A stretch of 4,578 bases of DNA, from IMG/VR virus record IMGVR_UViG_2531839474_000004. One strand, written 5' to 3'. Each line of letters begins with the position of its first letter. The first letter of the stretch is position 1. The translations under genes were made by a program, and so were the position numbers. The notes under the pieces are model-generated. The model worked only from the letters and a program-made list of their open reading frames with translations. It did not search any database and was not told where the DNA came from. The stretch comes from a virus (taxonomy: Duplodnaviria > Heunggongvirae > Uroviricota > Caudoviricetes). Positions 1-4,578 of the stretch are shown in pieces.

Positions 1-1253
1 GGCCCGTCACCAAACCTGACCTGCAAATGCTGAAACATCCCCTGAACCTGTGTGGCATCTTTGGGGTCAAGAAAGGTCAGTCCGGTGATGAGCGCACCAT
101 CTGTACCCGGGAACCAGCCATAACTGTTTGTCTCAATAATGCTCACCGGCCCCAGACGAAAACGGATTTGTGTCTCCCCCGGGTCACCCTTCGGTCCCTG
201 AGGTCCGGTAGCCCCCACCGGGCCAGACGCACCTGTTTCCCCTTTCGGTCCCTGTGGGCCTGCCGGGCCTGCTGCCCCGGTATCTCCCTTTGGCCCCTGT
301 GGACCTGTACTTCCCGTCAAACCGGTCTCTCCCCGCTCTCCCCTGTCGCCTTTCGGCCCCTGCGGGCCTGCCGGACCTGTATCTCCTGCCGGCCCCCGTT
401 CACCGGTTGCCCCTGCCGGACCGGTGTCACCACGCTCTCCTTTATCTCCCTTCGGCCCCTGAGGACCCGCGGGACCCGGGTCACCCTTTGGCCCGGCTGG
501 TCCCACCACGGTGGGGATTCGGTTTACGGCGTCTTCCGCCGCTATTCTGCTTTGTTCCGCTGACTGTGCGCTTTCTGCTGACTCCCGGGCTTTTTCTGTT
601 GCGGTCGTTGCATCCCTGGCTGCATTACCGGCTGCACTTTCTGCCGTCTTTTTTGATAACTCAGCATCTGTTGCACTTTGTAATGACTCTCTGGCTTTTT
701 GAGCAGCCTCTGAGGCCGAGGACGAGGACGCTTCCTCTGACTTCTTTGCTGAGGCTGCACTTTCTGCCGCCTGCCGGGCTGACTCCGATGCATCCCCTGC
801 TGAAGCGTCAGCATTTGCAGCGCTCTTTTCTGCCTGACTGGCTGATATGCCGGCATTCCTCGCTGACGTCTCCGCCTCTCCGGCATTCTTCTTCGCCTCC
901 TCTGCGTGACGCGCGGCCTCTTCCACCATTTGTTCAAAGCGACGCAGTGCCTCCGGACGGGCATCATCCTCCGTCATTGCGCCGAGGAAATCATTCAGTG
1001 TGCCCGGCTTTGAGTCCTCATACACTGTGATAATCCCGGCATGTGATGGCGGGAACCCCTCCACCAACAGAATAACGCTGTACTGACCGTACTCAACGTC
1101 CATGCTGTAACGCCCGGCTTCATCCGGATTTTCAGAGGCCACCGTGTTCACCACCACCGTGGCGCTGTTACGTCTGGCTTTCAGTTGAATGGTGCAGTTC
1201 TCTACCGGTTTTCCTGTCCCGTCTTTCAGTACACCTGAAATCTTTACTGCCAT
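1..1253 (-). CDS. stf: Side tail fibre protein (Stf-like), N-terminal 417 codons; the CDS continues beyond the window start, with no stop codon in-window
   Basis: Hand translation of the minus strand from ATG at 1253..1251 gives [112 protein letters not shown]..., which closely matches the N-terminus of lambda Stf (orf-401) as I recall it. The frame stays open for 417 codons to position 3, with 2 bases left over. It is not in the ORF track because that track needs a stop codon. It lies 64 nt downstream of lom, as in lambda. A weak SD-like GGGGTG sits upstream of the ATG. Confidence 0.85.
171..503 (-). repeat. Collagen-like Gly-X-Y repeat tract inside stf: 37 uninterrupted triplets, codons 251-361 ([111 protein letters not shown])
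   Basis: Seen directly in the minus-strand translation. On the plus strand it appears as reiterated ggncc/cctttcggtccctg-type motifs. The GGN-CCN codon periodicity also explains why several other frames here lack stops and produce spurious ORFs. Confidence 0.85.
630..769 (-). repeat. Pair of exact 17-nt direct repeats (plus-strand ggctgcactttctgccg at 630..646 and 753..769) inside the Ala/Ser/Glu-rich shaft region of stf; the 123-nt offset keeps them in frame
   Basis: Direct reading of the sequence. On the coding strand the repeat is cggcagaaagtgcagcc, encoding the A-E-S-A-A motif twice (..[11 protein letters not shown].. and ..[11 protein letters not shown]..). Shorter copies of the ctttctgc core recur at about 569, 636, 759 and 827. 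Confidence 0.8.
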
Positions 1254-1261
1254 ATTCACCC

Positions 1262-1290
1262 CACAAAAAAGCCCGCCTGAACCGGCGGGC
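1262..1290 (-). terminator. Rho-independent terminator downstream of lom (minus-strand orientation)
   Basis: Minus-strand reading is GCCCGCC-ggttca-GGCGGGC followed by TTTTTT: a 7-bp all-GC stem (plus 1271..1277 pairing with 1284..1290), a 6-nt loop and a U-tract (complement of 1265..1270). It sits 28 nt after the lom stop and 11 nt before the stf ATG. Confidence 0.65.
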
Positions 1291-1317
1291 TGTCATAACA
1301 CTGTGTTACCTGGCTAA

Positions 1318-1917
1318 TCAGAATTTATAACCAACACCCACGATGAAACCGTCAGTGCGCCAGTCACCACTGCCGGAACCTTCATAAGCGACATCAATGG
1401 CCACGGATTCAGTCGGGTTAAACTGCACGCCAGCTCCCCACGCCAGAGACGTGTTGCTGTGGCGACCGTCATCACTTCCGGTCAGCACATCGTGCGTTTT
1501 CCCCTTGTTATCAGTTACGCGGAGATAATCCCCGGAAAAAGTCGACACACGGCTGTAAGCCACACCCGCCATCGCATACGCGCTGAACCATTCATTCACG
1601 CGCACAGACGGCCCCGCCATTACGCTGAACCAGCGGTTACGAACGGAATCTTCATGCCAGCGGGTATCGCTGTAACGGGTCAGCTGGCGATTCTTGTCTC
1701 CTGCATAGCTGAATGACGTCACCAGCCCCAGTGTGTCCGTAAACTCATAACGGTATTTCACGTTAATCCCGTTCAGATCATCACTGCCGGGAACGTTCGT
1801 CGAGGCATGAAGATACCCCGCGCTCAGCGTGGACTGATGTTCAGACGCCCATGCAGGCGCACCGGATACGGCCAGACAAATGGCTGCGGACAAAATTGCT
1901 GCACAAACTTTATGCAT
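1318..1917 (-). CDS. lom: Outer-membrane protein Lom (Ail/Lom/PagC/Rck/OmpX family, 8-stranded beta-barrel); a phage moron / lysogenic-conversion gene
   Basis: 199-aa ORF. The N-terminal signal peptide MHKVCAAILSAAICLAVSGAPAWA has an A-W-A cleavage motif. The C-terminal stretch ...VDVAYEGSGSGDWRTDGFIVGVGYKF, with its terminal aromatic F typical of OM beta-barrels, matches the lambda Lom C-terminus as I recall it. It sits between J and stf, as in lambda. An SD-like GAGGT lies 4 nt upstream of the ATG. Confidence 0.93.
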   Translation of the reverse strand: MHKVCAAILSAAICLAVSGAPAWASEHQSTLSAGYLHASTNVPGSDDLNGINVKYRYEFTDTLGLVTSFSYAGDKNRQLTRYSDTRWHEDSVRNRWFSVMAGPSVRVNEWFSAYAMAGVAYSRVSTFSGDYLRVTDNKGKTHDVLTGSDDGRHSNTSLAWGAGVQFNPTESVAIDVAYEGSGSGDWRTDGFIVGVGYKF

Positions 1918-1941: not shown

Positions 1942-1966
1942 AAAAAAGGCGTCATTCCTGACGCCC
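1942..1966 (-). terminator. Rho-independent terminator between J and lom (tJ-like)
   Basis: Minus-strand reading is GGCGTCA-ggaa-TGACGCC followed by TTTTTTATT: a 7-bp stem (plus 1948..1954 pairing with 1959..1965), a 4-nt loop and a U-tract (complement of 1942..1947). It starts 22 nt after the J stop codon. Confidence 0.6.
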
Positions 1967-1987: not shown

Positions 1988-4578
1988 TCAACGAATACTG
2001 ATGCCGGAAGCAGCTTTTTTGGTCACAATCACCGTACAGTCGGTGATATTGCCTGCCCCCTGATTGCCTTTCTGGAAAATCTTAAACTCCAGAGTGACGC
2101 TACCACCACCACTAGGCATATCAATAACTGCACTGTAACTACCGGGAATGGCCCCTTTAGTTTCTCTGGATGCGATTAATACGCCGTTTTTGCGAACTTC
2201 AAAACCATAACCCGTGTATCGCGTGCCTCCTGGGTTATTTCCGCTCCCCGGATCGTCATACGCTATACCGTTAAAAATAATGGGCGGAATAATAATCTGA
2301 CGGTCAAAGTTATGATCATCGCTGATGGTGACTGTAACCGTACCGTTTGGTGTTTCCGTGTTACCCCACGTACCGACTTTTTTCGGGAAGGCTTTTGATA
2401 CAGCTTTAACGAAATCCCCTCTGACCTGGGTCGCCTCCAGCATGCCCTTAATCGTACAGTTCTGGTTAATCGTGACATTGTTGAGCGTTCCTGAGTTCGC
2501 ATTCACACTGCCACTGATATCCGCATTTTTAGCGGTCAGCTTTCCGTCTGATGTCAGGGAAAATACCGGAGGACTGCCACCGCTGGTAATGGTGGGGGCC
2601 GTCAGGCGCTTCAGGAACACGTCGTTCATGAATATCTGGTTGCCCTGCGCCACAAACATCGGCGTTTCATTCCCGTTTGCCGGGTCAATAAACGCGATAC
2701 GGTTAGCGGCAACCAGAAACTGGCTCAGCTTGCCTTCCTCCGTGTCCTCCATGCTGAGGCCAAGCCCCGCGACATAATGTTTGCCGTCTTTGGTCTGCTC
2801 AATTTTGACGCCCCACATGGCATTCCATTTATCACTGGCGTCTTTCCACTCTTTCGAAAACTCCTCCAGTTTGCTGGCGTTATCCTCCGTCAGCTCGACT
2901 TTTTCCAGCAGCTCCTTGCCGAGATGGGATTCGGTTATCTGGCCTTTGAAAAAATCCAGATAACCTTCCGCATCATCGCTCGCCCGACCGACGGCCTCCA
3001 CAAATGCCGATTTACCAACGGTATTCACGCTGCGGATGTAAAAGTAATAATCATAACCCGGCTTAATATTGCTACTGGCAGCTATCCAGTACAGCGCCGT
3101 ACCAAGATAACGCGCGCTGGTTTCAACCTGCCTGATATCCGCAATCCGCGTTTCCGAGAACCAGAACTCAAACTGCACCGTCGGATCATAAACCGCAAGA
3201 TGCGGTGTGGCGGTTATCTGAAAATAGCCCGGCGTCAGCTCAATCCGCGACGGCGCTGCCGGTGCGGCAATCCGGAATGATACCGACGCCGGATCACCCT
3301 GCTGCCCCCAGGCATTTACCGCCCTGACTGTCAGCCTGTAGTTCCCTGGCGCCAGCTGCCTGAAGCGGTATGTGGTTTCCGTCGTCCGGGCCGTGCTGAC
3401 CAGCCGCTCACTGCCGTCATCCGCTGCCACGGTCAGACGAAGCAGAAAGCTCACCCCCTTCACCACCTTCGGCGTGTCCCAGCGCGCCAGCACCTGATAT
3501 TCCCCGCTGTCGGCGGTGACTTCGGCGGTCAGGTGCTGCACCGCTGGCGGCGTGACACCATTCACCGTGCCGCTCTGGTCGCCATCAAAGTGCGCCCCGT
3601 TATCCACGATGGCCTCTTTTTCCGGTACATGCTGCACGGCGGTGATGGCATACGTGCCGTCATCGTTCTCACGGATACTCACGCAGCGGAACAGGCGCTG
3701 GCGCAGCGTCGGCAGCTTCAGCCCCCATACGCTGTATCCGGCAACGCCGTCAGGAACACGGCTCACTTTTACCTTCACGCCGTCGGTGACGGACTGGACC
3801 TCCACGCTGACCGGATTACCACTTCCGTCAACCAGGCTTATCAGCGTGATACCGGAGGATGGCAGCGTGATTTCACGGTCGAGCGTCAGCGTCCGCGTCT
3901 GGCTGTTCACCGCCAGCACACGCCCGCCGATGCTGATACCCGCATAGTCATCATCACAGATTTCAATGACATCGCCCGGTACATGGCGAAGCCCTTCAGC
4001 ACCCACGCTGAAGTCCACGGTCTGCGTTTCCAGCAGCTCCGTTTTAATCAGCCACAGCCCGGCGCGGTGTGCCTGCCCCCGGCTGGTACAGCCAAAAGCA
4101 TCCATCTTCGTGACGTTACGACCGTAACGGGCAATGGCCTGCGTGTCCTCCACAAGCTCTGTCGCCGTCTCCCAGCCGTTATCCGGGTCAATCCAGTTCA
4201 CCTCAACGGCATTATGGCGGTCCTTCAGAGCGCTGAAGCTGTAGCGGAACGGCGCGCCATCATCCGGCATCACCACATTACTGCGGTTATAGGTCCACAC
4301 CTTATCCGATGGCCGGTCCTGCACGAACGTCAGCGTCTGCCCGTTCCATACCGGCATACAGCGCATCGCCGAGCAGAAATCACTGAGCACATCCCACGCC
4401 TTGCGCTGTGTGGTCAGGTACGCATTACAGGTGATGCGCGGCTCCGTGCCGCCAAAGCCGTCCGGCACCGACTGGTCGCAATTCTGGCCGATGACATACA
4501 GCGCCCATTTGTCCACATCCGCCGCACCAAGACGTTTCCCCATGCCGTAGCGCGGGTGGGTCAGCATATCCCACAGAC
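1988..4578 (-). CDS. J: Tail-tip host specificity protein J (central tail fibre), C-terminal ~860 codons; the N-terminal part lies beyond the window end
   Basis: The 859-aa track ORF (1988..4567) stays open upstream to the window edge (..LWD before [28 protein letters not shown]..). Over most of its length the translation closely matches lambda gpJ as I recall it (e.g. [101 protein letters not shown]). Stop codon TGA at 1988..1990. Confidence 0.95.

Follow-up and report, generated by a model that had tools for sequence, protein, structure and literature searches.

A 434-type receptor-binding domain at the end of gene J in a lambdoid prophage, most likely directed at OmpC rather than LamB

Which outer-membrane protein is used by a phage whose central tail fibre resembles that of lambda over most of its length and leaves the lambda sequence at its receptor-binding end? 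The question is raised by a stretch of 4,578 nucleotides (nt) from a virus of the Caudoviricetes (IMG/VR record IMGVR_UViG_2531839474_000004), in the following called the window, which carries the C-terminal part of gene J for the tip attachment or central tail fibre protein. In an earlier sequence-only reading the body of this J was described as close to lambda gpJ and the last ~157 amino acids (aa) as a replaced module, and either a different outer-membrane receptor or a different LamB variant was proposed for the phage. The specificity region of J, residues 960-1132, has been recognised as an independent evolutionary module on the basis of 1207 natural J homologues (Maddamsetti et al. 2018, PMC6646904); in the same study indels were seen to concentrate at four hotspots, 1012, 1048-49, 1077-78 and 1107. 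The comparisons presented here make it very probable that window positions 1991-2468 encode a J receptor-binding domain of the phage 434 type, an exchangeable cassette that most likely docks on OmpC rather than on LamB.

Gene J occupies positions 1988..4578 of the minus strand, as recognised from the list of open reading frames (ORFs), homology and domains, and is represented by its C-terminal 862 codons and a TGA stop at 1988-1990. The ORF, listed as 1988..4567+, stays open to the window edge at 4578 and is free of frameshifts. Its 862 codons align to lambda J residues 276-1132, and the N-terminal ~275 codons fall outside the window, in an assembly gap. The window is the reverse complement of the piece 7340-11917 of scaffold JH659570.1 (GCA_000261145.1), which is enclosed by N-gaps at 5475-7339 and 11918-12017. 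Five Pfam domains follow each other in the fragment in the order Phage-tail_3, Ig_J, Ig_J_second, Phage_Tail_Tip and Ig_GpJ_C, which is that of lambda-type TipJ proteins, with E-values between 7e-43 and 4e-25 and each above the curated cut-off. The NCBIfam model NF049904 (lambda_TipJ) scores 1653 bits over model positions 276-1163 and stays below its full-length cut-off of 1950 bits, as is to be expected with the first 275 residues of J outside the window. The gene is also placed in a tail operon as in the lambda type: lom and stf come after J in the window, all three genes on the minus strand, and H-M-L-K-I lie upstream on the source scaffold. According to BLASTP the J fragment is 85% identical overall to lambda J (J02459), near-perfect up to lambda residue ~985 and poor after it, and 97% identical to residues 276-1137 of phage 434 J.

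The conserved body of J (2469..4578, minus strand) comprises the hub's C-terminal portion, two Ig/FNIII domains, an alpha-helical shaft and the beta-prism fibre. Over the 643 aa that precede the module the identity is 96.0% to lambda J and 97.4% to 434 J (MAFFT), and after them the alignment to lambda J breaks sharply. Positions 1991-2461 encode the 157-aa end, which terminates with ...AASGISIR and is preceded by the six codons for NVTINQ (2462-2479); this end shares 40.4% (MAFFT) or 37% (tblastn) of its residues with lambda J. At the DNA level the identity to lambda per 60-nt bin amounts to 0.90-1.00 down to window 2479, falls to 0.63 in the bin 2478-2419 and lies at 0.33-0.63 beyond. When the J coding alignment was scanned by maximum chi-square, the breakpoint fell at window 2468: on its 5' side 94.6% of the nt agree with lambda, on its 3' side 49.6%. 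The chi-square is 670, the maximum of 300 permutations 19.2. Identity, Pfam match and breakpoint together delimit the module differing from lambda, an Ig-like domain (Pfam Ig_GpJ_C), to 1991..2468 on the minus strand. The GC content is 47.3% in the module (1991-2483) versus 58.5% in the J body (2484-4578), 54.7% in lom and 59.2% in stf. Furthermore, the module is separated from lambda by four indels, at lambda 1011/1012, 1043-1051, 1078/1079 and 1099-1113, which coincide with the published hotspots (PMC6646904).

The sequence-only reading was therefore right about the conserved body and about the departing end, and near-identity of the last 160 aa to lambda, which it had named as the finding that would speak against it, was not seen (37-40%). 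The borders it gave to the divergent region, 1988-2461, and the length of ~157 aa are correct apart from a few bases, the left edge (2461) lying within 7 nt of the statistical breakpoint. A correction is needed at the other side: lambda-divergent DNA extends past the J stop through the spacer and nearly all of lom, and similarity returns at about window 1400, in the last ~25 lom codons. The lambda-diverged block of ~1.07 kb is made up of the J module, the spacer and lom to ~1400.

The class to which the end belongs is evident directly from the alignments. At 153 of 157 positions (97.5%) and with 0 gaps it is identical to residues 981-1137 of phage 434 J (OL657226, UMO75286), and 153/157 residues are likewise shared with J of the classical hybrid lambda h434 imm21 (OM418627). 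The search for phages sharing the module, as suggested in the sequence-only reading, was done by tblastn and led to the 434 class: the module is 100% identical in phages ASU11, Stx2_EH2201 and mEp460_ev081, and 94.9-99.4% identical in Kati, 569R4, Evi, 2B8, cdtI, mEp460, phi458, Perceval and many Stx1a/Stx2c phages. Phage 434 (95.0% nt) and lambda h434 imm21 (94.8% nt) are collinear with the window over its whole length, and the identity profiles of lambda against 434 and of lambda against the window drop in the same bin (2478-2419) and recover alike at ~1400. Hence 434 gpJ and the h434 allele agree with the window in length class, in the types of lom and stf and in the breakpoint against lambda. 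They differ by four substitutions in the module and by ~5% nt divergence elsewhere, and the cargo downstream of the tail fibre genes is nleG in the window prophage, whereas it is nleB/C/H in 434.

The domain family is equally clear. Pfam PF12421 (Ig_GpJ_C, 'Tip attachment protein J, C-terminal receptor binding domain') matches residues 726-861 of the J fragment with E = 4.4e-25, and the solved homologues found by phmmer are 9wca, 'A8 gpJ 713', as the best match (E 1.9e-60) and lambda J 8xcj/8iyk (E = 3e-51). When the 157-aa module was modelled from its single sequence with AlphaFold2, the mean pLDDT was 49.1, which is too low for a check of the fold; the homology seen at the sequence level does not depend on this model. 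Within this family the end is not of the LamB-binding lambda type, represented by lambda J 976-1132 with the host-range residues 1012 and 1107, given 37-40% identity and gaps at 1011/1012 and across 1099-1113, nor of the A8/BP-4795 type, given 45% identity to A8 over 148 aligned residues and 48.6% to BP-4795; as far as sequence tells, the A8/BP-4795 end and the module of the window belong to the same fold family but to different classes. The window was also scanned against Rfam without a match, so that no RNA element accounts for the region. The J end is the long-known 434/h434 host-range module, which is already sequenced, annotated and abundant.

That such ends are exchanged between J bodies is seen directly in their distribution. 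Identity to the module is bimodal among the phage records, at least 90% in 74 and below 60% in 169 of them with none between. A comparison of three segments (J body, module and Lom; MAFFT) covered ten phages. Lambda shares with the window 96.0% of the J body, 40.4% of the module and 47.5% of Lom (46% by BLASTP); for ASU11 the corresponding values are 68.9, 100 and 96.0%, for BP-4795 65.0, 48.6 and 96.0%, and for PhiR55_1 87.1, 44.5 and 89.4%. Judged by these identities, J body, module and lom reassort independently, and it is lambda's lom that is the outlier. The idea of a replaced module on a conserved body is borne out by the bimodal identities and by the uncoupling of module and body. A gradual drift of the J C-terminus was considered as well; it is rejected on account of the bimodality together with the discordance between body and module. 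A fixed cassette of J end and lom, which the extension of the lambda-diverged DNA over both had brought to mind, is likewise rejected in view of BP-4795 (Lom 96%, module 48.6%) and PhiR55_1 (Lom 89%, module 44.5%).

The exchange probably has a preferred place. The 30 aa directly upstream of the module (2462..2551, minus strand; MAFFT alignment and DNA) form a junction which is nearly invariant in lambda, 434, ASU11, cdtI, mEp460, phi458 and PhiR55_1, and the sequences split directly after it. It is still recognisable in BP-4795 and in Fels-1, the Salmonella relative compared, whose module is 48.6% identical to that of the window. The junction is a plausible, indeed likely, site of homologous exchange.

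Of 5426 complete E. coli genomes, 2113 contain module DNA of the 434 type, at up to 7 places per genome, and 513 records reach or exceed 99% nt identity. The lambda-type module is present in 98 of the 5426, in all cases with at least 99% identity, and the listed records are laboratory strains including DE3 derivatives. The 434-type end is thus ~20 times commoner than the lambda end in complete E. coli genomes, and according to these counts the window carries the common natural form and lambda the rare one. Both the abundance of the module and its independent reassortment agree with published accounts of J modularity. Compared with the natural specificity region described in PMC6646904, the window shows the same region and the same hotspots; it is one more instance, without a difference of substance.

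The primary report on the 434 receptor, which is said to be that of Hantke from 1978, reportedly named protein Ib/OmpC. Two papers give OmpC as the route of infection of phage 434 and state that lambda, when equipped with the 434 tail-fibre gene, binds OmpC as well (PMC3509688, PMC11101478). In view of this literature and of the 97.5% identity to 434, the receptor addressed by the module of the window is most likely OmpC. With respect to the two options left by the sequence-only reading, a different outer-membrane receptor is accordingly favoured by the reports on 434 over a different LamB variant. The classical hybrid contributes to this picture. The sequenced lambda h434 imm21 changes over from lambda to 434 sequence at record position 17619-17637 (J codon ~705-711), and since this crossover lies upstream of the module, the classical h434 host-range allele includes it. 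After the crossover the hybrid carries 434-type sequence in the rest of J, in lom, stf and tfa and in the nle region, so that the historical h434 allele extends far beyond the receptor-binding module.

How such a domain may work is known from lambda. The C-terminal Ig-like domain of lambda gpJ is trimeric, and the four loops at its bottom enter the LamB trimer through the extracellular lumen (PMC11101478). Upon binding to LamB the domain spreads and the beta-prism fibre becomes compacted and twisted, which leads to the tail tip being opened (PMC11101478). The lambda domain on LamB (PDB 8XCJ/8XCK/8IYK; PMC11101478) belongs to the same family, Ig_GpJ_C, with the same domain order and a J body that is 96% identical, but it differs by 37-40% identity, four indels and its receptor, LamB versus the OmpC reported for the 434 type. 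Because the 434-type domain is homologous to that of lambda and sits on a fibre that is 96-97% identical, the same mechanics of triggering may be assumed. By this analogy the Ig-like domain of the window would form, as a trimer, the distal tip of the fibre, and its bottom loops would enter the extracellular mouth of a trimeric outer-membrane porin. Binding to the porin would spread the domain, twist the beta-prism fibre above it and open the tail tip for DNA ejection. With a 434-type domain docking on OmpC and not on LamB, the virions would infect independently of maltoporin. The domain is joined to a lambda/434-like J body at the conserved junction and has most likely spread among lambdoid phages by homologous recombination.

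OmpC is used by other lambda-like fibres too. In the A8 and 1A2 gpJ chimeras the C-terminus of J alone was swapped, and use of OmpC was demonstrated for them by experiment (Brodel et al. 2024, PMC11338833). The A8 chimera (PDB 9WCA/9WCB), which is near the BP-4795 J end, likewise consists of a natural J C-terminus on lambda J, and from its use of OmpC it follows that swapping the J end alone retargets lambda particles. It differs from the window in its domain, which is only 45% identical, yet the 53 residues upstream are 91% identical. Central fibres of the lambda type that use OmpC experimentally are also those of Gifsy-1 from Salmonella (PMC12312913) and of evolved phage 21 (PMC11336670). 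Phage 21, however, reaches OmpC by a point mutation from a LamB-binding ancestor and not by exchange of a module (PMC11336670).

Several points weigh against an assignment to OmpC or limit its reach. The 434 segment of h434 also carries lom, stf and tfa, so that the hybrid alone cannot separate J from the side fibre as the determinant of OmpC use; J as this determinant is suggested by the cited reviews and by analogy to lambda. The OmpC-using A8 and 1A2 chimeras are of another class, with a domain 45% identical in the case of A8. Use of OmpC by the exact allele of the window, which is four residues off 434 J, would follow from the similarity to 434, and three of these four differences fall in the loop that aligns with the host-range hotspot at lambda 1100-1107. 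Moreover, J is cut by an assembly gap, so that it is uncertain whether the gene is intact and the prophage viable. In the literature searched, nothing useful was found on the receptors of mEp460/mEp460_ev081, PhiR11_1/PhiR55_1, 569R4 and Kati, and no paper pairing h434 with OmpC.

The four differences deserve a closer description, as one alternative depends on them. According to the BLASTP alignment they span 2057..2347 on the minus strand: codon 2345-2347 specifies N here and D1019 in 434, codon 2078-2080 I instead of V1108, codon 2072-2074 Q instead of H1110, and codon 2057-2059 G instead of R1115. The same sites are polymorphic in other 434-class phages (N/D at 1019, I/V at 1108, Q/H at 1110, G/R/W at 1115). 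The last three occupy an eight-residue part of a loop that contains gaps, ...EFK[I/V]F[Q/H]KGNQ[G/R/W]AGN..., whose alignment with lambda 1100-1107 is approximate. The range of OmpC alleles accepted by the window allele could thus differ from that of 434. It is a rather doubtful proposal that the combination N, I, Q, G represents a natural specificity variant of the 434 class which uses other OmpC alleles or an additional porin in comparison to laboratory 434, with the loop FK(I/V)F(Q/H)KGNQ(G/R/W)AGN as the counterpart of the lambda 1104-1107 hotspot.

A related alternative holds that the four substitutions alter recognition in such a way that only certain natural OmpC alleles, or another porin such as OmpF, are bound. 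The clustering of I/V, Q/H and G/R in the loop would fit, as lambda residue 1107 is critical for gaining the use of OmpF (PMC6646904); the three states G, R and W at the last site are what is expected of a contact residue under diversifying selection, and gpJ chimeras do tell OmpC alleles apart, 1A2 being efficient on the EDL933 variant only and A8 on those of MG1655 and EDL933 (PMC11338833). However, the domain is 97.5% identical to 434 without indels, no evidence ties the four residues to a receptor switch in the 434 class, and this very allele is common: 513 E. coli records match it with 99% nt identity or more, and phages listed with K-12-derived or generic E. coli hosts are included. An altered recognition is for these reasons unlikely. 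Continued binding of LamB by the divergent end, either as another solution for this receptor or as an adaptation to a LamB variant, has a precedent in so far as some diverged J C-termini use LamB and phage 21 J begins on LamB before it reaches OmpC by a single mutation (PMC11336670). The module of the window, though, is of the 434 type for which OmpC is given in the literature, and it shares only ~40% of its residues with the lambda domain and has an indel at each of the four specificity hotspots, which makes the use of LamB very improbable.

Two further alternatives concern the DNA rather than the receptor. The junction could be a product of the assembly, with a 434-type end attached in silico to a J body of other origin: the window is an exact piece between two N-gaps of the draft scaffold JH659570.1, a second overlapping J fragment of 95.5% identity lies on the same scaffold, and the number of places that match the window in an E. 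coli genome has a median of 2 and reaches 17. Yet the junction is located ~2.1 kb inside a gap-free contig, and the succession of body, module, lom and stf is collinear over 4578 nt in finished 434, lambda h434 imm21, Evi and 2B8 as well as in many complete E. coli chromosomes (95-96.5%). An assembly artefact is therefore hardly credible, and the conclusion on the module is independent of the body attached to it. Finally, the module could belong to a decayed prophage and have no present-day role in adsorption. The N-terminus of J is not recoverable from the scaffold, and nleG effector cargo is typical of domesticated lambdoid prophages in attaching/effacing E. coli; but the 862 codons are open without frameshift, the genes called upstream as tail genes H, M, L, K and I show the Pfam families to be expected of them, and the identical module occurs in inducible or plaque-forming phages (ASU11, induced by mitomycin; mEp460_ev081). 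Decay to this extent is improbable, and it would concern the state of the prophage, not the identity of the module. With a 434-type domain directed at OmpC as the preferred explanation, J of this prophage is to be annotated as a host-range allele of the 434/OmpC type and not of the lambda/LamB type, which affects the host strains predicted for its virions or for particles engineered from the prophage.

Downstream of J, the gene lom (1318..1917, minus strand) encodes an outer-membrane beta-barrel of 199 aa of the Ail/Lom family (Pfam Ail_Lom, E = 8.9e-122), which is of the 434 type with 96.5% aa identity to 434 Lom. A pattern scan revealed a GC-rich hairpin at 1948..1965 in the 70-nt spacer between J and lom (1918-1987), where a terminator is annotated at the equivalent place in OL657226 (434) and JQ182728 (mEp460). 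A terminator-like hairpin followed by a T-run was detected by the scan after lom (1270..1291, minus strand), and 434 has an annotated terminator at the same place. The hairpins after J and lom suggest that lom is an insulated unit of the moron type.

The third gene, stf, is represented by its first 417 codons (1..1253, minus strand; translation and Pfam phage_tail_N, Collagen and Phage_fiber_C) and runs off the window into another assembly gap. In comparison to 434 stf it mostly has 88-100% nt identity per 60-nt bin, with one bin at 0.82, and it is lambda-like for the first ~100 codons only. Its parts are arranged in the order phage_tail_N, an Ala/Ser/Glu-rich low-complexity stretch of ~120 aa, ~100 aa of collagen-like G-X-Y repeats and Phage_fiber_C. 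Two plus-strand ORFs rich in Pro, Leu and Arg, 27-563 (178 aa) and 254-1030 (258 aa), are antisense to the collagen-like and low-complexity part and look like compositional shadows of the GC-rich repeats, not like genes. The plus-strand ORFs 1880-2179 and 2325-2777 were rejected in the same way as antisense shadows of J, being open and having nothing else to speak for them.

On the scaffold the window belongs to the tail operon of a lambdoid prophage with the order H-M-L-K-I-J-lom-stf-tfa. The other J fragment, at scaffold piece 3766-5474, overlaps the J region of the window with 95.5% identity; from this overlap two J copies appear to have been scaffolded in tandem, and the true N-terminus of the window J is uncertain. 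Two type III effector genes of the nleG family (PF06416) were found downstream of the tail fibre genes at scaffold piece 12542-14077, and they mark the host as E. coli of the attaching/effacing type. The nleG pair is followed by chromosomal genes, the last one with the domains of the sensor kinase PhoQ.

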